Shown: piece by piece, positions 3,059 through 20,000 of the stretch
How positions within the stretch are numbered: the stretch's first letter is position 1
How the letters are laid out: each line of letters opens with the position of its first letter
Virus record (IMG/VR): IMGVR_UViG_3300044612_003086
Coordinates: 113,892 to 133,891 of that record
Reading direction: 5' to 3' (one strand)
Source of the DNA: an uncultured virus (IMG/VR IMGVR_UViG_3300044612_003086)
Lineage: Duplodnaviria; Heunggongvirae; Uroviricota; Caudoviricetes
Length of the DNA stretch: 20,000 nucleotides
Notes under the pieces: generated by a model
Seen by the model: the letters and a program-made list of their open reading frames with translations, nothing else
Told to the model about the DNA's origin: nothing
The model's database searches: none
Position numbers and translations under genes: made by a program

Positions 3059-3889
3059 TCATCTCGGTTCCTGCCAAGATGGATAGTCACCTCTTGGCTT
3101 ATCAAGTGAATTGTTCATTGTTAAGTGTTTTCCAAAAGTATTGATTCCATGTATGAATCCCAAATGCTCTGGAAATTTTAAATCGATGCATATGTCTCTC
3201 AGTTTTCCGTCGCGAATCTGTTCCCAAATATAAACCATCGTTTCAGAGCCAGTTCTTCCATCCACGTAGAATTTTTCTGCTATTAGGTTTAGCATTTCAT
3301 CTTCCCATTTGGGATTTTTTGGTGTTATTTTGTCTTGAAACAGATGCTCTTTTGGCGGCGACATACTGCCAGACGCAATGAGCCGATTTACGTATTTTGC
3401 TGGAGCGGCAGATACGTGGACATCAAAAAGCCCGCCCGACAACAATGCCGCTGCTTCCCGTGCTGATGGTCCTGAAAGAATCATGAGTCGATGCTTTTTA
3501 TCAGTTAAAGCTTCATCTTCAATGGGGTACCCCCTAATTGCTCCCTCACAGTAGTTATCTGTTAGGCCAGAAACGATGGTCCTCCACTGGTGTTCTTCCT
3601 CGTCTCCATTCAAAGAATTTAAGTCAATATACAAACCTTTGTATTTGTTTATTAATACATTTCTTGGTGTTTCCATGGCTGCATCATTTGTGCCTATGCA
3701 GATAATCGCCCCACACTCATCAGCAAGCTTCTCCAAAGTGAATAAATTATTTATTCCGCAATCCGATGCTCTGTGTATAGTCTCCATTGACCTATCCATC
3801 GATGCGAAAAATACAGAATGTCCTGCTAATTGCAATGACTTTGCGATTGTTGCACCCATTTTCCCGGGAGAATTAATTCCAATTTTCAT
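3059..3889 (-). CDS. NAD(P)-binding oxidoreductase, 6-phosphogluconate/3-hydroxyisobutyrate dehydrogenase-like N-terminal domain
   Basis: Rossmann start MKIGINSPGKMGATIAKSL...GHSVFFAS..RS, plus YIDLNS, EGAIRGYP and ILSGPSA, resembling the NAD_binding_2/DUF1932-type family. GAGG upstream of the ATG. Confidence 0.75.
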   Translation of the reverse strand: MKIGINSPGKMGATIAKSLQLAGHSVFFASMDRSMETIHRASDCGINNLFTLEKLADECGAIICIGTNDAAMETPRNVLINKYKGLYIDLNSLNGDEEEHQWRTIVSGLTDNYCEGAIRGYPIEDEALTDKKHRLMILSGPSAREAAALLSGGLFDVHVSAAPAKYVNRLIASGSMSPPKEHLFQDKITPKNPKWEDEMLNLIAEKFYVDGRTGSETMVYIWEQIRDGKLRDICIDLKFPEHLGFIHGINTFGKHLTMNNSLDKPRGDYPSWQEPR

Positions 3890-5583: not shown

Positions 5584-6409
5584 GGTCATTGCTCCGAGAC
5601 CTGTGCGCTGCTGCTCTTGCTGGTGGCATTCCGGAATACTTGCCGTTGATGTATTCATCATAGTCTTCAGTGATTGAGCTCAACCAAACTTGTCCACCTG
5701 TGTCTGAAATCTCCAACTGTGGGTTTATCCCTTTTTCTTGAGATTCTGAGCCCTGGGCAAACCAGGCAAGGTACGTGAGTCTTTCTCCACTTGTGATAGT
5801 GGATATCTCATGGGCGGCTACGTAATTAGCCGGAAACAAAAGTATGTTTCCTTTTTGCGGTTTGATTGCAACGTCTGCATACGGAAATAACATTTCACCG
5901 CCACAAAACGCTCCTGGCGCTGGGGTTTCCGACCAGTCGTTAATGAAAACTATTGCACTCAGAACGTTTCTAGTTGCGTGTTCCTTGCTGGGCATTTTTC
6001 CATATCTGTAGTTCACATCATTATCCGAATGAAGCCCCAGTGAACCACCGGTTGAATAAGAGAGGATATGTCCAGAAGTTCTCCACCACAGGCAGCTAAG
6101 GATTGCTGGAAACATTTCAATGTACTGCAAAAGACAGGAATATATCGCTGGCTCAAATTCGTTGTATATTTCGCTACCCAACCCTTGTAGTCTGAGTGGA
6201 GCTTTTGCCATGTCCTGCAGGCTATAAATAAAACCGCCCTGATTTAGCGCGTGGATTGGATTTCCGTTTTCATCTAGGACAACGGTAAAATTTTCTTCTA
6301 TTGCCTTTTGCTTCAACTTCTCTATCTTGTCTGAAAATTTACTGAATTCGATGTTCGCAGCGGCCACAAACTCGATTATTCCATGACCATGATTTATCAC
6401 GGAGCTCAT
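5576..6409 (-). CDS. Fe(II)/2OG oxygenase (paralog subfamily A)
   Basis: HSDND, FIND, GGEMLFPY, FPANYVAAHEI, ERLTYLAW; WWRTSGHILSY. Confidence 0.88.
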   Translation of the reverse strand: MSSVINHGHGIIEFVAAANIEFSKFSDKIEKLKQKAIEENFTVVLDENGNPIHALNQGGFIYSLQDMAKAPLRLQGLGSEIYNEFEPAIYSCLLQYIEMFPAILSCLWWRTSGHILSYSTGGSLGLHSDNDVNYRYGKMPSKEHATRNVLSAIVFINDWSETPAPGAFCGGEMLFPYADVAIKPQKGNILLFPANYVAAHEISTITSGERLTYLAWFAQGSESQEKGINPQLEISDTGGQVWLSSITEDYDEYINGKYSGMPPARAAAHRSRSNDHG

Positions 6410-7020
6410 AGCAGGGACCTTATGGCTTGTTTTATTGAATTATCCTCCCCGAATAAAGCCTGCTCCGATATCGGTGATTCCGCCCAATTAAATCGACCAA
6501 CATAAACGCCTTCTCGTGATGTTAAGAATTTTTCCCAATTGTTCGGAACCCTCATTGCAACTTCCCCCGCTCTATTTCTTCCAGCAGCCGCAGCGGCACT
6601 CAAGTCGGCCATGCTGTCGTTAAAATTTCTTATTAGCTCTCCATTTAGGAATGAGTAAACGTCATGCCTATTTTGCCCGTTAACGTCTATTTTTTCTGCT
6701 ATCGGAAATGTAACGTAGGGATAATTTTTTTTTATATTTTCAAAAATTTCCAAATTGTCGCCATTCTCCATGTTCCCAAATTGGTTGCATGGGTAACCGA
6801 CGACGCTAAAACCGCTATCACAAAATTCTTCATGAAGTTTTTGCAATTCCCAAAAATTTTTAGCTGTTCTTGCATAAGACCATAGACGACTGCACTTTGG
6901 CGAGTATCCGGTCTTTGATACAACGTTTACATGGAGGAGCACTTTACCCCTTAACTGTCCAAGCAAATTTGGACAGCCATCCAAAGAGCTTATTTCTATA
7001 TCAAAAATCGATTTACTCAT
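6406..7020 (-). CDS. Glutathione peroxidase-fold protein with atypical active site
   Basis: SIFDIEISSLDG, LRGKVLLHVNVVSK, GYPCNQFG, TFPIAEKIDVNG and NWEKFL match GPx/BtuE motifs. The canonical NVASKCG reads NVVSKTG. Likely start is ATG 7020 rather than 7062. Confidence 0.85.
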   Translation of the reverse strand: MSKSIFDIEISSLDGCPNLLGQLRGKVLLHVNVVSKTGYSPKCSRLWSYARTAKNFWELQKLHEEFCDSGFSVVGYPCNQFGNMENGDNLEIFENIKKNYPYVTFPIAEKIDVNGQNRHDVYSFLNGELIRNFNDSMADLSAAAAAGRNRAGEVAMRVPNNWEKFLTSREGVYVGRFNWAESPISEQALFGEDNSIKQAIRSLL

Positions 7021-7312
7021 CCTCTGACACCGTACATGAGATTTTGGTATTAAGAAATTCACCTATTCTTAGAAAACCGCTTCCAGATTCCGTATCAATA
7101 TCGATTTGTACCGTCGTAATAATTGGTGCCTCTAGTTCAAATCTGCTACTTATACTCTTTCCGTTATTGCCGATGACCACATTTTCTCCAGGCACCACGT
7201 GGGTTCCCCTGCTATGGTTGATTGCAATTGAGCCATCTTCGGAAAGAGTTAATCTGCAAACTTCTTCCCCAAATGGTGTATCAACGGAGATATCCCAAGA
7301 CCCCAAAATCAT
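7013..7312 (-). CDS. Hypothetical small beta-rich protein (99 aa)
   Basis: Tiles the operon; starts GSWDISVDTPFG; function not recognised. Confidence 0.7.
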   Translation of the reverse strand: MILGSWDISVDTPFGEEVCRLTLSEDGSIAINHSRGTHVVPGENVVIGNNGKSISSRFELEAPIITTVQIDIDTESGSGFLRIGEFLNTKISCTVSEDE

Positions 7313-8595: not shown

Positions 8596-9312
8596 TTATA
8601 AAAACTTTTCATTCGGAAATTTACTTCTGAGGTAAGCAAGGTCAAAGTCGAACATCAAAACAAGACGTCTTGATGTACCATCATGTCTTACCGAGTGCTC
8701 AAACGGCGGGCCATCCTTGAAAGCAAGAATCTTGCCTTCTTCCCAACTTTTTGTTTCGTCGCCTACGGTTATTCTACAGTCCTTATCGTTTATTAGGCAC
8801 AGGTGACTTCTCATTAGTTGGTCAGAACCAAAATGCGGATTTACTACCGCCCCAGGATGCATTATGCTGAACATTCCGCCAGAACATTGGTTGCTGTCAG
8901 CGAACTCAGCAACTATCGAGTTAAACGTTTTGAATTGTTTCCTAACGTGCTCTAGGTGTGTTTCTAGATTGGCTTTTGTTTTCCACCTCAGTATTTTTTT
9001 TACCATTTCCGTATTTGCCCACTGCTTGGGGTCACTTGCTGGTGGAGTTCCGGCAACCGCTACGTCCCAGGAGCCTGTATAAAGCTTTCGCCTATCCCCT
9101 TCCGGCAAGTCTGATTGTGGATTTTCGTACCTTGCGTGAGAGAGGGTAACATTTGGGGCAGGCAGAGAAACCTTGTTATCGGAGTATGGGTGTTGAGTGT
9201 TTTCGTAAACGATGTACTCGTCACGTATCTTTTCCCAGTTTTTCTCAATCTGCACACACACGGGCAAGGACCTGATTAATTCATCCCAGAACCTTGGCTG
9301 CAAGTCACTCAT
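8596..9312 (-). CDS. Aspartyl/asparaginyl beta-hydroxylase family protein (AspH/LpxO-like)
   Basis: NWEKIRDE, FSIMHPGAVVNPHFG, RSHLCL, VGDETKSWEEGKILAF.D...EHSV.H.G...RLVLMFD match the Asp_Arg_Hydrox motif series. Confidence 0.88.
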   Translation of the reverse strand: MSDLQPRFWDELIRSLPVCVQIEKNWEKIRDEYIVYENTQHPYSDNKVSLPAPNVTLSHARYENPQSDLPEGDRRKLYTGSWDVAVAGTPPASDPKQWANTEMVKKILRWKTKANLETHLEHVRKQFKTFNSIVAEFADSNQCSGGMFSIMHPGAVVNPHFGSDQLMRSHLCLINDKDCRITVGDETKSWEEGKILAFKDGPPFEHSVRHDGTSRRLVLMFDFDLAYLRSKFPNEKFL

Positions 9313-11413: not shown

Positions 11414-11430
11414 ATCATACCACCATTATA
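11414..11430 (-). promoter_or_regulatory. Candidate internal sigma70-type -10 elements (TATAAT and extended TGGTATGAT)
   Basis: Minus strand reads TATAAT-GG-TGGTATGAT at the start of the ~40-nt gap upstream of the small-protein run; no convincing -35. Confidence 0.35.
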
Positions 11431-12133
11431 CTATGGGCTCCGAAAGTGCTGGCAGCCCAGCAAATGTTGGGCCTATTTGATTTCCGTCCGCGTCAAGACC
11501 TGTCTTAATGCCCTTTGTCCAAGTCCATGGGCGTTCGATATTGTTCTGCGACTTGAGTTGACCATATTTTGACCTTGCCTCCACCAGCTCCTTATCGTCC
11601 CATAGTGTCACTACCTCGAATTCTGCGTCTTTAATGATTTGAGGCGAGTAGATGTTAAAAAAACACAAAGGCGAACCGGCTGGGAAAACTACTTCCTGAT
11701 TTTCTTTTGTTATCTTCCAGTTCATTTGAACTTCGTCAGGCCACCACCACGAAGGAATCGTTGCTGACAGCCCGACAGCGCCGTCTATAAAGTAATTTGG
11801 AGAGCCCGAAATCCAAGTCTCATACCCTGGCTCGGTGTTTATAATCCATCCCATGTGTAGGGAAATGGTTCCTATTATTGATGATGTGGCTTGCTTTCTG
11901 CCGCTTTTAGTAAATTCGCCTGCAAGTATTTCGGGGGGAGTGTTTCCGCCGGACCATTTAATTACAAGGTCCTCCTCCATCTGCACTTCCCATCCCATTA
12001 CATTCGCCACGGAGACTGGCATGCATTGATAAGCGTGTTTTTTATGTGTCTCGTCCATCCAGTCTCTCTTTAATCTTGACTGAACTATCCGAGGTGGATT
12101 TGGGTCTGTTCTTTTTAAAACTATCTTGCTCAT
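11426..12133 (-). CDS. DUF6065-like protein
   Basis: RDWMD...HAYQCMPVSVANVMGW, SGSPNYFIDG...L...I..WW and MNWKIT...VVFPAGSPLC match the DUF6065 pattern as I recall it. Confidence 0.75.
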   Translation of the reverse strand: MSKIVLKRTDPNPPRIVQSRLKRDWMDETHKKHAYQCMPVSVANVMGWEVQMEEDLVIKWSGGNTPPEILAGEFTKSGRKQATSSIIGTISLHMGWIINTEPGYETWISGSPNYFIDGAVGLSATIPSWWWPDEVQMNWKITKENQEVVFPAGSPLCFFNIYSPQIIKDAEFEVVTLWDDKELVEARSKYGQLKSQNNIERPWTWTKGIKTGLDADGNQIGPTFAGLPALSEPIV

Positions 12134-12849
12134 TTCTTTACCGACATATCAATACTTGTTCCAGACGAAACCCCAGCCCCATATGTTGCCTTTGAGCCGT
12201 CAATATTCTCCCCGTAGCCATGTTTGTGAGTTCTGTCGTTGTAGTCAAACATGGTCACTGCCGCATACTTTGTTCCAGAAACAACAGGTCGCGACGCGTG
12301 GGCATACGTAAACGTAGATGGGAACATTACGTTGTCCCCAGCGGCAAACTTCACGTTTAGGTCAAGATATGGGAACCAAAGCTCACCCCCCTCGTAGTCG
12401 TCATTTATGTATATGACTGACGAAACTGTACAGTTATAAGAAAATCCATGGTCTGTGTGAACGTTGAAGTGCTGACCAGGCTTATATCGCACATAATTTA
12501 TGGCTTCACGATAATCCATTTTGATGTTAAATCTTTGCTGATAGTCGTTAAGACATGCCGTTAATATTTCAACGGTATCTTCGTATACTGAGCGAAGTCC
12601 GGAAAATTCTTGTGGCAAGTTTGCTATATGGGCATCTCCCAATTTACAATCAACGCAGTCTCTGTATTCTGGCATTTTTTGTTGGTCGCCAACGAGTGCA
12701 TCCATCCACATATACGGCGCGGTTTCACTGGACCCAATCGCCTCTTCAATTCTCTCCGGTATGTTCAATTCCCGTGGGAGCGCATTGCGATAGACGATTA
12801 TTGCCAATCTCGGGTCTCCAATAAACTCAACCTCGATATTTCTTACCAT
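12130..12849 (-). CDS. Prolyl-4-hydroxylase-like Fe(II)/2OG oxygenase (2OG-FeII_Oxy_3)
   Basis: VRYKPGQHFNVHTD, YINDDYEGGELWFP, FPSTFTYAHAS, GTKY; AGGAG RBS. Confidence 0.9.
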   Translation of the reverse strand: MVRNIEVEFIGDPRLAIIVYRNALPRELNIPERIEEAIGSSETAPYMWMDALVGDQQKMPEYRDCVDCKLGDAHIANLPQEFSGLRSVYEDTVEILTACLNDYQQRFNIKMDYREAINYVRYKPGQHFNVHTDHGFSYNCTVSSVIYINDDYEGGELWFPYLDLNVKFAAGDNVMFPSTFTYAHASRPVVSGTKYAAVTMFDYNDRTHKHGYGENIDGSKATYGAGVSSGTSIDMSVKK

Positions 12850-13381
12850 ATTGGTTGCTCCTTTTTTGTTTATGTTTCATAGAAAACCACATTGGGCATG
12901 CCCACCTATCCCCTCCGTATACATTATCTACATAATGAGCAAATTCAATACCGCCACCATAAATTACAACCCGGCCTGGGGATGGCTTCACGGTATTGCC
13001 CGTATCGGCAAAAACAAGTTCCCCCCCATTGAATTCTTGGTTCAAATACAGAACCGCAGACACATCAAAGTCCTCACACCCAAGCTTTGGTGAGCCATCC
13101 AAATTCTGCCTGTCTGCGTGCAGTGTTGGGACATGAAGTCCAGATTTGCTGACAAAAATTCCGGGCATTCTATGCTCAAGTTCAATGTCATATTTTTTCT
13201 CTGCGGCTGCCATGACAACCCATGATGCAAATATCAATGACTCGGCGGCTTCAAAATCTTCTGTCAGTAGTCTGTCAATTCCAATACTTTCGCCAATTTT
13301 TACTGCCGCCGACAATATTTTGGAAATAGTCGTATCTTCAAAAAGCGAATCTATGATATGTACTTTGTCTACTCTATTCAT
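12827..13381 (-). CDS. Prolyl-hydroxylase-like Fe(II)/2OG oxygenase
   Basis: LHAD, SAVLYLNQEFNGGELVF, HYV, GDRW. ATG 13381 (8-nt overlap) preferred over 13429. Confidence 0.88.
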   Translation of the reverse strand: MNRVDKVHIIDSLFEDTTISKILSAAVKIGESIGIDRLLTEDFEAAESLIFASWVVMAAAEKKYDIELEHRMPGIFVSKSGLHVPTLHADRQNLDGSPKLGCEDFDVSAVLYLNQEFNGGELVFADTGNTVKPSPGRVVIYGGGIEFAHYVDNVYGGDRWACPMWFSMKHKQKRSNQYGKKYRG

Positions 13382-14009
13382 CCACAACAGTATAGAACGA
13401 TGGGGTCGTATATCTCTCCCCAGATTCAACCATGCTTACCCCGTGTAAGTACCCAACATCACCAGGATGTATCACTGCCAAGCCGGGTTTTGGTCTAACG
13501 GTAATCCCGTGCTGTGGGTAATACAAATCGCCACCCTCAAAGTCGTCATTGTAATAGAACAATGAATTGATGTCGTAATCCGTGAAGGCGTTTGGTCTTC
13601 CGTCATTTAGTTGCTTATCGGCATGGGGGCGCTGCTCTATGCCTGCCCGCCATTTCATTATCACCGGAGGGCGCACTGAAACAGAAACCTGAAAAAGCTC
13701 TTCGATGAGGTTCTTCATTTTGTAGATGTATTTATCAACAATTTCATAAACCTCCGAGTTCAGCTCCTTTAAAATTTCAGAACTGCACTGCCTGTCGTTC
13801 CAGTATTCTGCGTTATACAAACATGTTCCATCTTCCGCATAAACGCTTTCGGCTGTGTTGTTCCATTTATTTATTGTTGGGCAAAATTTCTGAACTAAGA
13901 GCAAGTCTTCTAGTTCGATAAAATTTTCAATTATGTGGATGTTCTCTGGTCCGCTGCCAAAATGCCCGGGTTTTATCTTCCAGGGTGAATCGATATCAAT
14001 CATTTCCAT
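13374..14009 (-). CDS. Prolyl-hydroxylase-like Fe(II)/2OG oxygenase
   Basis: PHAD, YYNDDFEGGDLYYP, YLHGV, GERYT. Start at 14009 or 14003. Confidence 0.9.
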   Translation of the reverse strand: MEMIDIDSPWKIKPGHFGSGPENIHIIENFIELEDLLLVQKFCPTINKWNNTAESVYAEDGTCLYNAEYWNDRQCSSEILKELNSEVYEIVDKYIYKMKNLIEELFQVSVSVRPPVIMKWRAGIEQRPHADKQLNDGRPNAFTDYDINSLFYYNDDFEGGDLYYPQHGITVRPKPGLAVIHPGDVGYLHGVSMVESGERYTTPSFYTVVDE

Positions 14010-14784
14010 GTGATTTCCTTTGGGACGTTATATGTTCATACAACATAACATCCAATTTGCTTCTTTCAAGTATTTCCTTTTTTTGTGACGGGCTCGGTTT
14101 TATTCCAGCTCGGACCGATGAGTTCATTTTTTCTAAACCCAACCCTACAAATTCAACATTGAATTTATCCTTAAATTGATAAGTCAAATATTTTTCTACG
14201 GCCATTCGCTCGTTCATTTCAAAAATTGTAATGTCTTTAATTCTGTCTATTAGTTCTTTTTCTCCAGTAGGTAAATCGGACTCGACAAACCATGCACCAT
14301 TAGGCTGAATACTAACCCCTGGTGATTCATCCCCAACATCTAAGACTGCATTGATTTCAACCATCCTGCACGTAAGCATCTTGGTTTGCAAATTTCCGTC
14401 AGATGAAAACAATTTACATCCAAAAATTGTTTCGTATTTTCCGTCTAAGAACTTGTCAAGAATTTCGTTTGTAAATTCCCTTCGGGACGACATGGCCCTG
14501 TATGCAGCAATGCTGACAAAATGGTCTACCGGCTCCCTTATAACGGAGAACGTCTCCAGGCTGCTGTCGTTGTGTAAAATTGGATTGATTGCAAAATGAC
14601 CACTAATTGTGGGCCATTCGCTCATTGTTATGTGATTATATGAAAATTCAAAAATCCCAGGGGTTTGGTTTTCGTATTTATCAAGACCCTTTTTGTATCT
14701 ATCCAGTTCAAACGATTTATGTATTGCGTAAAGTATTCCGGTCCCAGATGTGCGCGGTATATGCAGATGATAAAGATTACCCAT
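13996..14784 (-). CDS. Sulfotransferase family protein (Sulfotransfer_2-like)
   Basis: 5'-PSB-like HLHIPRTSGT at the N-terminus, SGHF, 3'-PB-like IREPVDHFVS and C-terminal LDVMLYE. Confidence 0.8.
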   Translation of the reverse strand: MGNLYHLHIPRTSGTGILYAIHKSFELDRYKKGLDKYENQTPGIFEFSYNHITMSEWPTISGHFAINPILHNDSSLETFSVIREPVDHFVSIAAYRAMSSRREFTNEILDKFLDGKYETIFGCKLFSSDGNLQTKMLTCRMVEINAVLDVGDESPGVSIQPNGAWFVESDLPTGEKELIDRIKDITIFEMNERMAVEKYLTYQFKDKFNVEFVGLGLEKMNSSVRAGIKPSPSQKKEILERSKLDVMLYEHITSQRKSHGND

Positions 14785-15361
14785 TTTGGGCCATCTCTAT
14801 TAATTTCCTGTGTTTTTCTGGAACCCAGAAGTGGGGAGATGTATATCTAACTCCTTCTATCACTTGCCTTACGCCATGGAGGTAATAACTGCTGGATGGA
14901 AAAAATATCAAAGAACCCTCTTTTGGTTTTAGTTCAAGTCCGTGTTGCGGAAAATATATTTCCCCACCTGTGTAATTCTGATTTATATAAATTACGGAAC
15001 CGTAATCAACTATGTATGTTCCGTTTGGCGTGCCGTCTAGGTCTTCGCCATCCGCGTGAAGACCTTGACTCTCCCCAGAGTCCCATCTTCGTATGCCCGG
15101 TCTTGCTGTCTCTAGGATTCTCCCAAATTTAAACTCAATCATTTTCTTTACGTCATCAACGTATGATTGCATTATTTCATAGAGTTCGGGGTTATCCTTC
15201 TGCATTTTTTTGTATGTGGATATCTTGTCATTACCGCCCTTTGACCATGACTCCCACTCATTGATTGAATAGCAATAGCGATATGCAAGTTCGACGTGTT
15301 CGGGCGTCATAAAATTTTCTACTACAACTATGTTTGATTTGTCGGCAGCTGCAGCTCTCAT
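14777..15361 (-). CDS. Prolyl-hydroxylase-like Fe(II)/2OG oxygenase
   Basis: LHAD, YINQNYTGGEIYFPQH, YLHGV, GVRYTSP; close paralog of 13374..14009. Confidence 0.9.
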   Translation of the reverse strand: MRAAAADKSNIVVVENFMTPEHVELAYRYCYSINEWESWSKGGNDKISTYKKMQKDNPELYEIMQSYVDDVKKMIEFKFGRILETARPGIRRWDSGESQGLHADGEDLDGTPNGTYIVDYGSVIYINQNYTGGEIYFPQHGLELKPKEGSLIFFPSSSYYLHGVRQVIEGVRYTSPHFWVPEKHRKLIEMAQNG

Positions 15362-15371
15362 GGCTACAACC

Positions 15372-16307
15372 TTATCTATTTTGCAAAAACTCGTCTATAT
15401 CAGCGCTTATGAGCTGCAACGAAAAATCTATGCCTTTTCTCTGGGTGATATTTGGCCAAGCGGTACCAGTTTTTGAGTACGAGATGTGGCCAGGTTCTTC
15501 TACGTGTTCAGTTTTTGGCTTGTAGTAACGACGTCCATTTTCATCGTATCTTTCTTCAAGCCATGGAAACATTTCTCCGTCTGGATTTCTCTCCCCAAGC
15601 AAAAATCCATTTGCATAACGCTTGATTCTTGTTCCAGTTCTATCGATAAGGAACTTTTCAAAATTGCCTCGGAGAGGATAAAACCCACGTTTTCCTGTAT
15701 CAACTTTTGCGTAACCATCTGGTGTTAGCTCATTCGAGAAAGACCAAGGTATTTCCTCATAATGGTATGGCACTCCGTTTGGTTGGAGGTCTGCTTTGTA
15801 TGCTCCAGTTAAGTACCACCACAGGTCGTGCTGTTCTTGCATTTTAATTTTTCCTGGAACAAAATTCTCATCGTAGGTATGTTTATCAAATCTTCCATTT
15901 GTTAATTCAGAAAATTGATACGTAACACCAAAATTCTCTTTCGCGTACTGTTCAGACAATTGGCCCGGCGTGATATCTAGTTCATTTTTATCCAAGTACG
16001 CCTGGAGACCTTCTTGAAATTCGGGATATCCGTGGCAAACAAAATCATCAACAACAACCGCAAGAATATCAAAATCATCTTCGTTTTTGTATTTTTGATT
16101 TAATTCTTCGATTACGGAGTGTTGTGGAATATTCCCACATCCAGCCGACACATTAAAAATAAGAGTAACTTTTCCCTTGCGGTTTTTTAGTATGTCTGAT
16201 GATTTTCCATCAGCTGACGACAAATTAATGTCATATATGGAAAACGGAAGAACCGTGTCACTCCAATCATTTTCCGCAATTGGCGCTTCTTGTATTTCGC
16301 AGTCCAT
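15372..16307 (-). CDS. Glutathione peroxidase-fold protein with insertions
   Basis: SIYDINLSSADG, KGKVTLIFNVSAGCGN (peroxidatic Cys position kept), GNFEKFLID. The FPCNQF motif is replaced by VVVDDFVCHG. ATG 16307 overlaps the upstream TGA. Confidence 0.8.
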   Translation of the reverse strand: MDCEIQEAPIAENDWSDTVLPFSIYDINLSSADGKSSDILKNRKGKVTLIFNVSAGCGNIPQHSVIEELNQKYKNEDDFDILAVVVDDFVCHGYPEFQEGLQAYLDKNELDITPGQLSEQYAKENFGVTYQFSELTNGRFDKHTYDENFVPGKIKMQEQHDLWWYLTGAYKADLQPNGVPYHYEEIPWSFSNELTPDGYAKVDTGKRGFYPLRGNFEKFLIDRTGTRIKRYANGFLLGERNPDGEMFPWLEERYDENGRRYYKPKTEHVEEPGHISYSKTGTAWPNITQRKGIDFSLQLISADIDEFLQNR

Positions 16308-17551
16308 CACTTAAACCCTGGTGGGAAAAACGGCGGGAAGAAAGGTGGGAAAAATGGCGGGAAGAAAGGTGGGAAGAACGGTGGAAAGAAAGGCGGGAAA
16401 AATGGCGGGAAAAATGGAGGAAAGTATGGAGGGAAATATGGAGGGAAATATGGAGGAGCTACCGGGCTTACTGAACCAGACGAAGCAGAGGTCTGGAATC
16501 CGTAGCTATTGGTTGCTCTTACGGTGAATGTATAGGCAGTACCGTTGGTGAGACCTGTAACGGTAATAGGAGAAGTTCCAGAGGCCTGAACGTTTCCTGG
16601 CGATGAAATTGCAGTGAATGTTGTGGAACCAGTTCCCGCAGCTCCTGCAGTAAATGAGACAGTCACTTGAGCGTTTCCTGCAGCACCAGATACCCCAGTT
16701 GGTGCACCCGGCCTGTTTCCTGCCGTCACCGAGTTTGACGCAGCAGAAGTTGCTGAACCATACACAGAAGATGCGGTAACGGTAAATGTATATGCTTGAC
16801 CTGCGGTTAAACCCGTAGCCCTAATTGGGCTTGTTCCGGTAAAGGTCAATGCCCCAGGACTCGTTGTTACTGTGTATGTGGGAGAACCAGTTCCAGTCGC
16901 GCCTGGTGTGAATGGAACATCAATCGCCCTATCTACGTTTTGAACAATTACAGCGGTGCCTATTGCTGGGGCAGTTGGTTTGTTCCCGGCAACTACTGAG
17001 TTTGATGCAGCAGAAGTTGCTGCACCGAACAAGTTTGATGCGGTAACAGTAAATGTGTAAGAGGTTCCAGCAGTTAGGCCAGTCACTCTAATAGGACTGG
17101 AGCCAGTTGCGGTAATTCCTTCCGGCGAAGATGTTGCCGTAAACGTTGTCGCTCCAGTACCAGCTGCACCAGCCGTATAAGCAACGTCTATAGCTCTATC
17201 TGTGTTTGCAACGATTGATGCAGTTCCGATTGTAGGAGCACCTGGGTTTTGGCCGATTGCAACAGATGATGTGGAAACAGAATCTGATGGAACGCCATAA
17301 TTTGTTGTTGCAACAAGAGAGAATGTATAGCTCGTACCAGCAGTAAGACCAGTTACTGTTATTGGCGAACTTGAGGCGGAGGCGCTAATGCTTCCCGGGT
17401 TTGATGTAGCGGTATAGGTTATTGCATCTTTACCTATATACTCAGACGGCGTAAAAGATATTGAAGCCACAGTGCCCACGCCGGTATTCGTCGCTGTGAC
17501 GTTAGTTGGCGTAGTTGGCTTTTTCCCACCACTGTCTTTTATTGCTTCCAT
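16307..17551 (-). CDS. Fibronectin type III-like repeat protein (4 domains) with a C-terminal (PPYF)3(PPFF)8PPGFK tail; putative virion surface protein
   Basis: Four ~88-aa units starting P..PT/PA and containing SPI.VTGLT.G..YTF.V.A; no signal peptide; directly follows the fibre-like gene. Confidence 0.85.
   Translation of the reverse strand: MEAIKDSGGKKPTTPTNVTATNTGVGTVASISFTPSEYIGKDAITYTATSNPGSISASASSSPITVTGLTAGTSYTFSLVATTNYGVPSDSVSTSSVAIGQNPGAPTIGTASIVANTDRAIDVAYTAGAAGTGATTFTATSSPEGITATGSSPIRVTGLTAGTSYTFTVTASNLFGAATSAASNSVVAGNKPTAPAIGTAVIVQNVDRAIDVPFTPGATGTGSPTYTVTTSPGALTFTGTSPIRATGLTAGQAYTFTVTASSVYGSATSAASNSVTAGNRPGAPTGVSGAAGNAQVTVSFTAGAAGTGSTTFTAISSPGNVQASGTSPITVTGLTNGTAYTFTVRATNSYGFQTSASSGSVSPVAPPYFPPYFPPYFPPFFPPFFPPFFPPFFPPFFPPFFPPFFPPFFPPGFK
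16313..16456 (-). repeat. 12 x 12-nt coding tandem repeat encoding PP(Y/F/G)F
   Basis: Read directly: 3 PPYF, 8 PPFF and 1 PPGF. Third codon positions vary between units while the amino acids stay conserved. Confidence 0.95.
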
Positions 17552-17554
17552 GGT

Positions 17555-18331
17555 TTATGCCGAAAGGTCTCCGATGAGCACCCAGGTGTCAGCTGCTCTT
17601 TTTATCAGCGTAGCACCTGACCACTGCGCTCGCATTTTGCGTCCAGGTGTTGCGTTAATGGTCACCCCTGAACCCTGCGTAACAGTGCACTGACCTGCCC
17701 CTGTTTGAATAACCGTGATATGCGTTCCAGTTGCAAAAAACACCGATGAATCAGGGGGGACTGTCAAGGTATTAGCTGTGGCAACGTTCATCTCGATAAT
17801 CTTATTTCTATCCGAAAGAACAAGCGTGTAGCTAGCCGCCTGAGCGTTTGTCAATGGTTCTGCTAACTTATTCCTTCCTATACCAGCGTCGGATGAAATG
17901 TCACCATCGACTATTGTGCCGTCTTCAATCATGTACGAAGTAATGACCGCTTGGTCGGTTAGAACAACCGCTGTTCCAGCAATTTTTTCTGGGTTGATTT
18001 CTGCGCCGTTGGCAATATGAGTATCGCTAATAGCGTCATCAATAATCGTCAGTGAACCTGTGTGGAACAATTGCACGTCTCCGGATATGGCGGTTGAAGT
18101 AGCAACACCGGATGAGTTATACATAACAATCTTGCCAGGGTCACTATCTACAAGTCTGTTGAGAGGGACGGAATCCTCGGTTAGAGACGAACCAGCAACA
18201 GCGCCCGAAGAAAACATTGCTGATGGGATTGTTACAAGAACCCAACCAGAACCGTTGAAGGTCCAGGTCTTACCCGAACTTACGTGAAGGTCGCCTGATT
18301 GTGCACCTGATGGAAAGTCAATTGCTGGCAT
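17555..18331 (-). CDS. Tail-fibre-like virion protein
   Basis: N-terminal MPAIDFPS...GKTWTFNGSGW motif common in phage fibre proteins, short shaft-like repeats (DDAISDTHI, DGTIVDGDI) and a C-terminal domain paralogous to <1..392. ATG 18331 preferred over 18355. Confidence 0.75.
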   Translation of the reverse strand: MPAIDFPSGAQSGDLHVSSGKTWTFNGSGWVLVTIPSAMFSSGAVAGSSLTEDSVPLNRLVDSDPGKIVMYNSSGVATSTAISGDVQLFHTGSLTIIDDAISDTHIANGAEINPEKIAGTAVVLTDQAVITSYMIEDGTIVDGDISSDAGIGRNKLAEPLTNAQAASYTLVLSDRNKIIEMNVATANTLTVPPDSSVFFATGTHITVIQTGAGQCTVTQGSGVTINATPGRKMRAQWSGATLIKRAADTWVLIGDLSA

Positions 18332-18333
18332 GT

Positions 18334-19998
18334 TTAGGCCTGTGCTTCCGTCCAAGATAGACGGGCAAACACGGTTGCTGATGCCGAACCGATGTTTCTA
18401 GCAACAATATGCAGCGTGTCTGGTCCGTCTGGATATATACCTGTTGTTGTTGATGTCGTACCGCCACCAAGAACAGAGTTGCCAAGGTCACGAACGTCCT
18501 CAAGGCTAATCTGAACACCACCAATACCACCAGTGAAGAAACCGCCAGTAACTTCACCACCGCTCACTTGAGCATCAACTGCGGAATAATCTGCAATTTG
18601 AGCCAAGCTCGAGGTAACTGTGGTCGGTTTTGACCATGTTCTTGAAACGGTCGGAACTCCGTTGAGAATCGCCGTGATTAGAAGGTTTGACGTACTTGAA
18701 GTTGTCGTTACGTCCAGGTTGCGGAGTACGAGTTGCATTCTGTTCACCAGCTCACGCTCACCGAAAGCAGCCGATGTTCCATTATCTGCCGACGGTGACA
18801 CACGTATAGCCAATAGTGCTTTTGTTGCGCCAGACGCAATCGCGATACCGGTTGTCTGGCCATATGTAAACACGAGCGATTTGTCGTCATCGAATCTTCC
18901 GTCCATAATCGCTGAGGTTCCCCAGTGAGAAATGGAAGGAGCATAAGTTGGGAATGCCAACTCAACGCCCACTGGATTTGATGCTGAGTATGTGAATGCA
19001 AGTGCCGCATTTGTACCCATCGGAATTGCGCTTACTGTTGGGTTCGCGCCAGTTACTGCCGCGCTCAGTTTGATATTGTTTCCAGAAATTTGCTGAATAA
19101 ACGTACCATCAGGCACGTCTGTTCCAGTAACTCTCTGACCAACTTGTAATCCGGAGTTGGAGGCCACTGTTCCGTCGTTGGCTCCAGCCGCAATTGTTAT
19201 GGCAAGGGAAGCGTTTCCTGTTTGCTGTCTTGTTAGACCAGTGAACGTTGTAGCAGTCTTTCCTGTGTAGTTAATAAATTCATAACCAGTTGCCGTATTG
19301 AATACACACAATGTGCCGGCACTTGGAAATCCAGTCGTACTGCCAACATTCATGGTCGTTGTTTCAGAATCGGATAATGTTCCGGTTAGCTGAGTGTGTG
19401 GTGGCTGACTAAGACTTTCGTATCTTGCTGGAAGGTTTCCAGAGCGCATATACGCTTCAGCGTTTGTATTGTTATTAACTATTTTATGGGCGTACGTTAC
19501 TTTTCCGTCTTTTGCCCGCATTCCCCAGCGAATAAAACCAGCACCATACCACGAATAGTCAATGTAGAACATCTGCATTCTTGAAAGGTCAACGTTGTAG
19601 CCGGAAGCTCCCGTTCCGTCGAACTTGTCTAGATTCCATTCAGCTTGTGGATACTTTGTGTCCACTGTTTTGGAAACTGAAACCATGGTTGAAGTAGAAC
19701 CACGCCATGCTGGGCTAATTGTCATCGATGTATTGCTTGCAATATCTGTAACCCTGTATGACATGCCTCGAGCAACGATGTAATCTCCGATTTCTAGCTG
19801 TCCTGCATATCTCGTTGGGAACGCTGCGTTTGTTTGAGTCACGGTGCATGAGCCATTTGTGAATGATGACTTACCAGAAATCTGGAATGTTGATGAACGT
19901 TTTACGGCCCACAACGTTTGCCCGTCAAATTCAAAGAACACTCCGTTTTGGTCGTCAAACAAACCAATTCTGTTTACGTTTCCATACCAACCTGCAAC
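18334..19998 (-). CDS. Large virion structural protein, C-terminal part (5' truncated by window edge)
   Basis: Frame open to the window end (VAGWYGNVNRIGLFDDQNG...). Motifs FDDQNGVFFEFDG, QMFYIDYSWYGAG, YMRSGNLPARYE and HWGTSAIMDG resemble structural proteins of large aquatic phages; Thr/Ser/Gly-rich. Confidence 0.7.
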   Translation of the reverse strand, partial: VAGWYGNVNRIGLFDDQNGVFFEFDGQTLWAVKRSSTFQISGKSSFTNGSCTVTQTNAAFPTRYAGQLEIGDYIVARGMSYRVTDIASNTSMTISPAWRGSTSTMVSVSKTVDTKYPQAEWNLDKFDGTGASGYNVDLSRMQMFYIDYSWYGAGFIRWGMRAKDGKVTYAHKIVNNNTNAEAYMRSGNLPARYESLSQPPHTQLTGTLSDSETTTMNVGSTTGFPSAGTLCVFNTATGYEFINYTGKTATTFTGLTRQQTGNASLAITIAAGANDGTVASNSGLQVGQRVTGTDVPDGTFIQQISGNNIKLSAAVTGANPTVSAIPMGTNAALAFTYSASNPVGVELAFPTYAPSISHWGTSAIMDGRFDDDKSLVFTYGQTTGIAIASGATKALLAIRVSPSADNGTSAAFGERELVNRMQLVLRNLDVTTTSSTSNLLITAILNGVPTVSRTWSKPTTVTSSLAQIADYSAVDAQVSGGEVTGGFFTGGIGGVQISLEDVRDLGNSVLGGGTTSTTTGIYPDGPDTLHIVARNIGSASATVFARLSWTEAQA

Positions 19999-20000
19999 GG

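Follow-up and report, generated by a model that had tools for sequence, protein, structure and literature searches.

Collagen matures through prolyl 4-hydroxylase (P4H), prolyl 3-hydroxylase 1 (P3H1) and a cleaved C-terminal trimerisation propeptide, and collagen-like repeats are found in phage tail fibres. Here we describe a 20,000-nucleotide stretch of an uncultured virus (IMG/VR record IMGVR_UViG_3300044612_003086, positions 113,892 to 133,891; the window), the final 20 kb of a 133.9-kb viral contig, in which one gene encodes a protein of 414 amino acids (aa) with four fibronectin type III (FN3)-like repeats and a C-terminal Pro/aromatic tail, (PPYF)3 (PPFF)8 PPGF K. The tail resembles the collagen system in several ways: its Pro-rich repeat is expected to be polyproline-II, the best solved relatives of the enzymes linked to it are collagen-type P4H and P3H1, and some relatives of the tail carry a self-removing C-terminal trimerising domain in a fibre context. 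Unlike collagen, the tail has a period of 4 instead of 3, no Gly in its units and two bulky aromatics per unit, and because of the missing Gly and the two aromatics a canonical triple helix is impossible. We tentatively read the tail as an extended, probably trimeric fibre shaft and a probable substrate of the linked collagen-type hydroxylase-like enzymes, a composite that we place close to, and below, an even chance.

Chlorovirus PBCV-1 offers a second parallel, in which the virus encodes both a P4H and Pro-rich tandem repeats that are candidate substrates for it. The PBCV-1 repeats are short, charged and Pro-rich, not Pro/aromatic; the virus is a eukaryotic one, no conserved gene adjacency has been reported there, and its P4H is only a weak match to the phage enzymes described below (E 0.017). 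The P4H and the Pro-rich repeat proteins of PBCV-1 go back to Eriksson et al. (1999), as cited in the accessible parts of PMC7019647 and PMC9301287. Among phages, the closest described loci are the Syn9-type cyanophage arrays, with which the window shares its 11 oxygenase-type genes and a DUF6065 gene with an invariant Cys37 and a dUTPase-like model; unlike here, no protein substrate of a phage array is named in the accessible part of the paper that describes them (PMC2938197). That paper also proposes, for some bacterial clusters, that collagen-like or tail-collar proteins encoded in them undergo hydroxylation and subsequent sulfation (PMC2938197).

Further partial parallels come from structural proteins. 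Maize gamma-zein, with its (VHLPPP)8 repeat, and plant extensins and Pro-rich proteins consist of tandem Pro-rich aromatic/hydrophobic units, form extended helices and self-associate, and plant hydroxyproline-rich proteins are hydroxylated by P4H-type enzymes. The tail differs from these eukaryotic secretory proteins in its unit and period and shows no homology to them; Ser-Pro(3-5), the defining motif of plant-type extensins and hydroxyproline-rich glycoproteins, does not occur in the tail, nor does its Ser-Pro4 form. In T4 Hoc, Ig-like domains are anchored on the particle by a C-terminal folded domain. The window protein likewise is a string of Ig-fold domains with one short non-Ig part for attaching or assembling; unlike in Hoc, that part is a repeat and not a folded domain.

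The tail repeat and its conservation

The gene and its parts are as follows.

16307..17551, minus strand: gene for the 414-aa protein with four FN3-like repeats and the Pro/aromatic tail (open reading frame, translation, Pfam fn3)
16466..17518, minus strand: array of four FN3-like repeats, about residues 12-362 (four-fold motif, Pfam, modelled fold)
16310..16456, minus strand: C-terminal tail of 49 residues, (PPYF)3 (PPFF)8 PPGF K (codon table, selection, model)

The protein has a 12-residue start, the four FN3-like repeats and the tail, and then ends at TGA. The motif TGLT(A/N)G..YTF is present four times in the body. The PF00041 fn3 profile scored 63.5 bits against a cut-off of 25 (E 2.1e-17), two stretches individually pass the Pfam threshold, and the last FN3 repeat is modelled as a seven-strand beta-sandwich with a predicted local distance difference test (pLDDT) score above 90; both the profile and the fold place the protein in the fibronectin type III family (PF00041). 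The twelve 4-residue units lie at 16313-16456, where a previous inspection of the letters (the earlier note) had also placed them. The Lys codon follows at 16310-16312; the stop codon, at 16307-16309, shares letters with the start of the gene behind it (TGATG).

As the earlier note had seen, the tetrapeptide is kept while its Pro and Phe codons vary. The eight PPFF units are encoded by six different DNA versions; across the tail, Pro is written as CCA (11), CCT (7) and CCG (6) and never as CCC, Phe as TTC (13) and TTT (7), and Tyr as TAT (2) and TAC (1). A degenerate two-unit pattern matched 10 times in the window, every time inside the array, as compared to 0 matches in 200 dinucleotide-preserving shuffles. 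Tandem Repeats Finder reported periods of 12, 24 and 36 nt at only 79–85% matches, and thus the DNA copies have diverged. Judged from its translation the tail is extremely hydrophobic, and the protein has the most Pro-Pro dipeptides of all 567 open reading frames (ORFs) of at least 60 aa in the genome.

A perfect tandem array at the protein level could come from recent replication slippage, low-complexity junk or an assembly artefact. We found the same 49-residue tail on seven other viral contigs in three DNA versions (5 of these contigs encode an identical protein and 2 a protein that is 90% identical), and a 15-kb contig from another run covers 15900-17100 with 3 changed letters and no gaps. 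Because independent contigs agree without gaps, the repeat is no assembly artefact. We then compared the window's tail, as the reference, with 15 diverged homologues that have 49-residue tails. The proportion of synonymous differences (pS) was 0.72-0.94 and the proportion of non-synonymous differences (pN) was 0.026-0.087, while pN in the adjacent FN3 (90 codons upstream of the tail) was 0.16-0.25 in 12 of the 15 homologues; the other three gave FN3 values of 0.59-0.71, probably from gaps in the ungapped comparison. All four Pro codons, both Phe codons and both Tyr codons are in use among the 359 canonical units of 32 distinct DNA tails. Because synonymous sites are saturated while the protein is conserved, the tail is kept by selection and is not a recent slippage product, as the earlier note had proposed, and with a pN below that of the adjacent FN3 it is among the most constrained parts of the protein. 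Given the differing codons among units, this saturation and the ungapped agreement of independent assemblies, we give slippage, junk or artefact a negligible chance.

The tail was also said to be graded from Tyr to Phe, with the Tyr units beside the FN3 domains and the tail at the C-terminus. This is what we see in the window translation, where (PPYF)3 is followed by (PPFF)8 PPGF K, and in near relatives. Elsewhere the grading does not hold: a single leading Tyr block is found in only 11 of the 20 tabulated tail variants, and the other 9 regain Tyr later in the tail, some in a strict YFF pattern. Unit number, which was suggested to vary between strains, does vary among relatives (10-19 units in the 20 tabulated variants and 21 in L046) but is constant at 12 units in 7 near-identical loci. 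All 20 variants start with PPYF (after PVA) and end in F-K. Across relatives, the unit is virtually invariant in its first and second Pro and in the Phe at position 4, and position 3 is taken by F, Y, H or W.

We looked at the third residue (Y or H versus F) in 48 distinct arrays and found that the same residue recurs more often 3 or 5 units away (identity 0.64 and 0.57) than at lags of 1, 2 and 4 units (0.33-0.47), with lags 1 and 4 avoided; YFFYFF and HFFHFHFFHF are examples. Such a pattern could arise from helix geometry or from block duplication. We did not conclude a helix geometry from it, since lags 3 and 5 fit no single helix and block duplication fits equally well.

Searches with the whole protein yielded a set of 80 related viral loci; PPYFPPYF was among the search patterns, so that proportions in this FN3-sampled set are biased towards tails. 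The canonical tail architecture is present in 46 of the 80 loci, and three (L056-58) have a degenerate six-unit tail in which the F-K end is kept. The remaining 31 loci encode FN3 proteins with Gly-rich or other C-terminal parts in different gene contexts. Tail-bearing FN3 proteins span about 231 to 539 aa and therefore have different numbers of FN3 repeats. In the same genomic slot, homologues retain the tail in frame, and independent contigs are in agreement; the case that the earlier note had named as refuting, FN3 homologues in general being tail-less or frameshifted or reads exposing an artefact, is not borne out. The tail-less FN3 homologues (L035-L036, L059-L081) mostly have a long Gly-rich region followed by a conserved ...GSG(V/I)VII.YP... 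C-terminal domain, and none of them has an oxygenase homologue within 3 kb.

A whole-protein homology search gave 5408 matches, mostly to generic FN3 proteins; phmmer with the tail against 1.84 billion representatives gave 26 matches, probably an undercount from composition correction, and an ESM Atlas search with the tail gave no usable match. Against 50,697 deposited phages, megablast and tblastn with the locus, the FN3 protein, a PASTA-type relative and the glutathione-peroxidase-like protein of the locus found nothing. The BLAST low-complexity filter masks the tail, and its absence from deposited phages is read from a pattern scan of 5 genomes, given below. Freshwater metatranscriptome contigs from two libraries match 16000-16190, 16382-16495 and 16983-17100 with 0-4 changed letters; these are a weak hint of expression only, as such libraries can contain DNA and contigs cannot show transcription. 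A scan of 15000-20000 for promoters and terminators found sites no more numerous than in shuffles.

Structure, heads and C-terminal ends

We modelled the last FN3 repeat and the tail with AlphaFold2 from 29 sequences. The tail was modelled, at low confidence, as an extended coil that contains neither helix nor strand. Since every second residue on average is a proline, two in each unit of four, a helix or regular sheet is excluded, and the tail is not a helical membrane anchor, as had been expected of it. At about 3.1 Å per residue, an extended tail of this length would measure roughly 15 nm. A polyproline-II-type conformation is the expected one for such a Pro-rich sequence, and because of the Pro-Pro in every unit and a model without helix or strand, we consider it fairly probable that the tail forms a long, extended polyproline-II-type shaft.

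The extreme hydrophobicity of the tail, in a tail-fibre locus, would also suit an adhesion or membrane-active element, a Pro/Phe rod that sticks to or inserts into a host surface layer at adsorption. A helix is impossible, however, an extended tail of about 15 nm would reach far beyond a membrane core, and many relatives carry globular caps; we regard this role as very unlikely.

We scanned viral contigs with a degenerate five-unit pattern, which found at least 121 stretches, and examined 80 of these loci (the pattern-sampled set). Further samples came from a tail-only search and from a four-PPFF-unit scan of one genome per species, which gave 10 stretches, all in metagenome-assembled genomes. 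In 68 of the 80 pattern-sampled loci there is an ORF with at least five uninterrupted units. Of these 68 repeat ORFs, 29 have K straight after the repeat (x-F-K) and 7 end otherwise within ten residues; a Cys-rich cap follows the repeat in 7 and other parts in 23, and 2 run off the contig. The repeat is borne either by FN3 domains or by a small PASTA-like head (PF03793, E 5.9e-4, under the curated cut-off), on which it likewise ends in F-K. Some relatives continue into further FN3 or He_PIG domains, where the repeat is an inter-domain linker, and others into an intein/Hint-like domain whose first residue, a Cys, directly follows the repeat (PF14890; E 9e-5 and 6.3e-4, both sub-cut-off). The repeat is an autonomous module. 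Where it stands in the FN3 gene's slot, it has 10-21 units and always the PPYF start and F-K end. The Hint-like domain that starts with a Cys directly after the repeat is seen in L099, L146, L148, L168 and L169 (PF14890 and PF07591, weak and sub-cut-off), and such a domain would likewise release a protein ending just past the repeat.

Two relatives that occupy the same gene slot as the window's gene connect the F-K end to a known chaperone. In L123, the repeat ends ...PPAF-K, and with the very next residue, a Ser, the Peptidase_S74 profile begins at its position 1 (E 3.6e-11; 43.6 bits, cut-off 22). We found the same junction by motif in L284; the sequence in both is K|SD...K, in which five residues separate the Lys from the Ser in position, and a third locus (L145) has a 20-residue remnant beginning SDYRLKEN after its repeat. 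This Ser-Lys spacing is that of the Ser911/Lys916 dyad of endosialidase endoNF, which, like the T5 L-shaped fibre and the GA-1 neck appendage, is capped by an S74 or intramolecular chaperone (ICA) domain. In the known cases an ICA domain folds a triple beta-helix or a beta-helical stalk rather than a Pro/aromatic sequence. According to PMC8326128, the Peptidase_S74 domain brings whatever precedes it into a trimer and cleaves only in that trimer.

Because S74 cuts itself off before its Ser, the mature products of L123 and L284 are predicted to end ...F-K, and the natural end of the window protein is this predicted mature end of its S74-capped relatives. The window product thus corresponds to the predicted mature form of those relatives, four FN3 domains on a Pro/aromatic shaft. 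Since the same repeat with the same F-K end directly precedes the S74 chaperone in these relatives, the shaft may be assembled as a trimer, to which we give somewhat under half the weight. Among the fates that the earlier note had suggested for the tail, a rod-like or self-assembling element is the best structural reading, with support from the relatives that have the trimerisation chaperone after the repeat.

Linked oxygenases and flanking genes

Downstream of the tail gene are two genes whose products resemble collagen-type hydroxylases.

13374..14009, minus strand: 2-oxoglutarate (2OG)-Fe(II) oxygenase, P3H1/P4H-like, the best conserved partner of the tail gene (alignment, PDB profile)
12130..12849, minus strand: 2OG-Fe(II) oxygenase, collagen-type P4H-like (alignment, PDB profile)

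In the 12130-type group, H131, D133, H184 and K194 are invariant in 28 aligned sequences, and in the 13374-type group H129, D131, H189 and R199 are invariant in 29. Both groups thus have the intact HxD...H plus Lys/Arg site of a P4H-type enzyme. Searched against the PDB, the 12130-type profile matched Bacillus anthracis P4H best (2.4e-7), then PiuC-type enzymes, lysyl hydroxylase LH3 and PBCV-1 P4H (0.017), and the 13374-type profile matched human P3H1 (1.1e-8) and then B. anthracis P4H (1.5e-6). Nearly all of the PDB matches listed for both groups are prolyl, lysyl or PKHD-type hydroxylases, and nucleic-acid or small-molecule 2OG oxygenases are absent from them. Collagen P3H1 and P4H act on adjacent prolines. 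The Pro-Pro pair of each tail unit would offer the same arrangement, by analogy; the regiochemistry of the predicted hydroxylases is not readable from homology.

We next asked how closely these genes accompany the repeat. Across related loci, the 13374-type oxygenase, the 12130-type oxygenase and DUF6065 are conserved downstream. A homologue of one of the window's oxygenases is present within 4 kb in 27 of the 29 F-K-ended loci, 6 of the 7 with other short ends, 6 of the 7 with a Cys-rich cap and 13 of the 23 with other architectures, and a 13374-type homologue at 45% identity or more is present in 23 of the 29 F-K-ended loci. Loci without a fibre or oxygenase homologue mostly have the repeat as a linker inside very large proteins. 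We also sampled in the reverse direction, using only the 12130-type oxygenase and catalytic-motif patterns, and took the best 80 of 594 matches (53–100% identity). A repeat ORF lies upstream on the same strand in 67 of these 80 loci; another 12 without a repeat ORF have less than 3.5 kb of upstream DNA. The last, L219, has no repeat within 6 kb and an 11-match array 7 kb upstream, just before the first oxygenase of the record. In total, of the best 80 of 594, 68 are informative, and in 68 of 68 the repeat gene is found upstream.

The array itself is large. Between 1913 and 15361 there are 11 2OG-Fe(II) oxygenase-type genes in 13.5 kb (ten PF13640/PF13759 and one Asp/Asn beta-hydroxylase), and all PF13640 matches of the 133.9-kb genome, 7 by whole-genome search, are confined to this region. 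Such an array invites the explanation that the tail is a passive, semi-rigid Pro-rich spacer, that the enzymes make a small molecule or modify host proteins, and that their adjacency is conserved gene order. Eleven oxygenase-type genes in 15 kb of the window would fit this, as would the fact that some large multi-domain proteins use the repeat internally as a linker and are encoded more than 4 kb from any oxygenase. For Syn9-type arrays of up to ten tandem dioxygenases and a dUTPase-fold protein with a conserved Cys, secondary-metabolite chemistry has been proposed (Iyer, Abhiman, de Souza and Aravind, 2010; accessible part of PMC2938197). At an extreme C-terminus, however, nothing is spaced, the tail has a lower pN than a folded FN3 domain and its F-K end does not vary. 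As groups, the linked oxygenases are particular to phages with the repeat and resemble protein hydroxylases rather than small-molecule ones: against the 50,697 deposited phages, the 12130-type enzyme has no close counterpart (at most 32% identity), nor has the 13374-type enzyme (34–44% over partial matches). No halogenase or peptide synthetase is among the window's Pfam matches. Members known from the accessible description of Syn9 arrays, the tryptophan halogenase and a JmjC protein (MINA/No66), were likewise not found by Pfam in the 26 window ORFs scanned, some of which have no match to any family. We consider a passive spacer unlikely.

Other genes of this region are listed here.

14777..15361, minus strand: 2OG-Fe(II) oxygenase, PKHD/P4H-like (PF13640; PDB matches to a PKHD-type hydroxylase, P3H1 and P4H)
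12827..13429, minus strand: 2OG-Fe(II) oxygenase (PF13640, E 3.3e-9)
11426..12133, minus strand: DUF6065 gene with a predicted dUTPase-like fold (PF19541, E 4.3e-43)
13996..14784, minus strand: conserved 262-aa gene inside the oxygenase array (homologues in related loci, sometimes duplicated)
15372..16310, minus strand: glutathione-peroxidase (GPx)-fold gene with a large insertion (Pfam GSHPx; PDB matches to both GPx halves)
8596-9312: Asp/Asn beta-hydroxylase (PF05118, Pfam)
6406-7062: second GPx-fold gene (Pfam)
3059-3889: NAD-binding-domain gene (Pfam)

DUF6065 was modelled by AlphaFold2 with a pLDDT of 85, and its top Foldseek matches are dUTPases (E 2e-5, template modelling score 0.6-0.7 on the target, 10–14% identity). 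Its Cys37 is invariant, and whatever the architecture, DUF6065 is found along with the 12130-type oxygenase and the repeat gene. It showed no relation to the oxygenase alignment by hhalign, and phmmer against the PDB found nothing meaningful. The 262-aa protein had no Pfam, NCBIfam or PDB match. Its N-terminal HIPRTSGT is reminiscent of the 3'-phosphoadenosine-5'-phosphosulfate-binding motif of sulfotransferases; we rejected that identity, for which we found no support in Pfam, NCBIfam or the PDB. In the GPx-fold product of 15372-16310, about 110 residues are inserted between the GPx halves and the active-site-like motif NVSAGCG is kept; this gene comes and goes, being present in a subset of related loci only and twice in some.

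Tandem, identical, core-like units beside tailoring-type enzymes could also suggest a precursor of released or modified repeat peptides, of the kind known as ribosomally synthesised and post-translationally modified peptides, and the earlier note had listed a proteolytically released repeat peptide among its options. We found no cleavage sites or spacers between the units and no protease, cyclase or exporter among the window's family matches. Four folded FN3 domains would be an unusual leader, and the repeat occurs inside structural multi-domain proteins. This option is not supported by the locus, and we hold it to be highly improbable.

Upstream of the tail gene there are two structural genes.

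17555..18355, minus strand: tail-fibre-like gene, 266 aa (PHROG matches: virion structural, minor tail and tail fibre)
18334..19998, minus strand: virion structural protein gene, open at the contig end (phrog_5838, E 5.9e-188)

The tail-protein gene follows the 266-aa gene after a 3-nt gap. By tblastn, the latter matches minor tail proteins of Gordonia phages and has a C-terminal domain common to minor tail and tail-fibre proteins; the product of 18334..19998 is 44–49% identical to structural proteins of marine cyanomyoviruses. A fibre-gene homologue is present in the flanks of 28 of the 29 F-K-ended loci, 5 of the 7 with other short ends, 4 of the 7 with a Cys-rich cap and 9 of the 23 with other architectures. 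This neighbourhood raises the possibility that the tail is an unmodified docking peptide, buried in a groove of a virion protein (for instance the upstream trimeric fibre or the capsid) to anchor the FN3 domains on the particle surface, much as in T4 Hoc, with the oxygenases acting elsewhere. The closeness of the fibre gene speaks for it, as do the only about 12 residues before the first FN3, which leave the tail as the only non-FN3 part, and the conserved ends PVAPPYF... and ...F-K, which resemble recognition elements. Set against these are the positions of the repeat as an inter-domain linker and ahead of Cys-rich, Hint and S74 caps, where burial is unnecessary, a two-fold length variation (10-21 units) that is odd for a fitted peptide, and the oxygenase linkage in every informative locus, which docking leaves unexplained. 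We consider a docking peptide an improbable alternative, if one to be taken seriously.

The tail as a candidate hydroxylated shaft

In the reading that we favour, the collagen-type prolyl hydroxylase-like oxygenases encoded downstream would hydroxylate the Pro-Pro pairs of the shaft, which would stabilise the extended conformation and make a very hydrophobic rod compatible with water. The tail protein seems to be the most obvious hydroxylase substrate encoded by the phage, because no ORF of the 133.9-kb genome has a Gly-X-Y run of 5 or more and because no other ORF has as many Pro-Pro dipeptides. The parts of this reading differ in strength. Presence in the virion is likely, hydroxylation is possible and somewhat doubtful, and the polyproline-II geometry and the trimer stand as graded above. 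The observation made in the earlier note is confirmed, and its interpretation is partly supported; to these the present analysis adds the invariant F-K end, the exchange of heads and of caps at the C-terminus, and the linkage, seen in every informative locus, to genes for collagen-type hydroxylase-like enzymes.

Several results weigh against the hydroxylated shaft. The tail was modelled with a pLDDT of only 53-69. The Peptidase_S74 domain is absent from the window protein, whose gene stops at F-K, and its trimer state is suggested by homology of the repeat only. A Gly-less period-4 repeat cannot form a canonical collagen helix; Gly is not at every third residue of the tail, which contains one Gly. 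The linkage may be inherited gene order of one lineage, as the 68 loci are related by descent and are not 68 independent events, and any gene at the edge of a single oxygenase array would count as adjacent. Nine repeat-bearing records have no oxygenase within 4 kb; when we searched these records whole, PF13640 was elsewhere on the contig in 6 and not found in 3, which are fragments 18–31% complete. A three-unit (PPxF) pattern was found in 0 of 5 complete cultured cyanomyovirus genomes, all of which have annotated oxygenases, a result that also counts in favour of a passive spacer. The chemistry proposed for Syn9-type arrays concerns secondary metabolites, and in PBCV-1 virions hydroxyproline was not detected, the role of the PBCV-1 P4H being unknown according to the accessible part of PMC7019647.

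A bolder form of the same idea is a Gly-free analogue of collagen, in which (Pro-Pro-aromatic-Phe)n polyproline-II strands would form C-terminally zipped trimers, with the Pro-Pro pairs hydroxylated before assembly by the phage P4H- and P3H-like enzymes. In some lineages the S74 chaperone would zip the trimers, and it would have been lost in the window's lineage, leaving the bare F-K. We consider this full analogy unlikely.

Outside the window, beside the gene for the major head protein, G000:C1:58093-59508 on the minus strand encodes a 471-aa protein in which a K-, P-, S- and Q-rich unit of 26 residues (KKYPPGQKPSPSKPRDQKPADRYPSP) occurs about four times. Nearer to the PBCV-1 repeats in style, this second Pro-rich repeat protein is another conceivable hydroxylase substrate. 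In the cyanomyovirus S-SCSM2R, a prolyl-dihydroxylase-like oxygenase was found in the virion proteome, according to the accessible part of PMC12801897. The deposited annotation of Synechococcus phage S-SCSM2R (228299-233246) shows a long 2OG-Fe(II) oxygenase gene followed by three glycosyltransferase genes and one radical-SAM maturase gene, and its genome has no (PPxF)3 pattern.

The contig comes from an uncultured lake myovirus: its PHROG matches include an HK97-type major head protein, portal, large terminase, tail sheath and tube, and the stretch is present in 17 lake-water metagenome runs, possibly from one campaign. We dropped a T4-like cyanophage (Kyanoviridae) identity, suggested by the 44–49% match of a single structural protein, given the HK97-type head and the lack of psbA and hli. 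No match to psbA, hli or a Gp23-type capsid was found on the contig, and the Gp23 test is weak, as control genomes were also unmatched.

P4H-type genes are reported to be some of the commonest 'auxiliary' genes that aquatic viruses carry, and what viral P4H is used for was called 'cryptic' in a Baltic Sea study (accessible part of PMC9301287). Cyanophage tandem dioxygenase arrays have been without a known substrate since 2010, as far as the accessible part of PMC2938197 covers them, and our literature searches, including one for PPFF with phage, returned no paper describing a PPFF-type repeat. The tail is a short peptide that can be synthesised and is tied to two specific hydroxylase-like genes in every informative locus, which makes the substrate question open to a simple assay, and the F-K/S74 junction is a ready-made system for studying how the shaft folds. 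If the trimeric polyproline-type shaft is true, it would be a new kind of fibrous protein. If the Gly-free collagen analogue is true, the tail would be the first identified protein substrate for phage 2OG-oxygenase arrays and a new fibrous fold.

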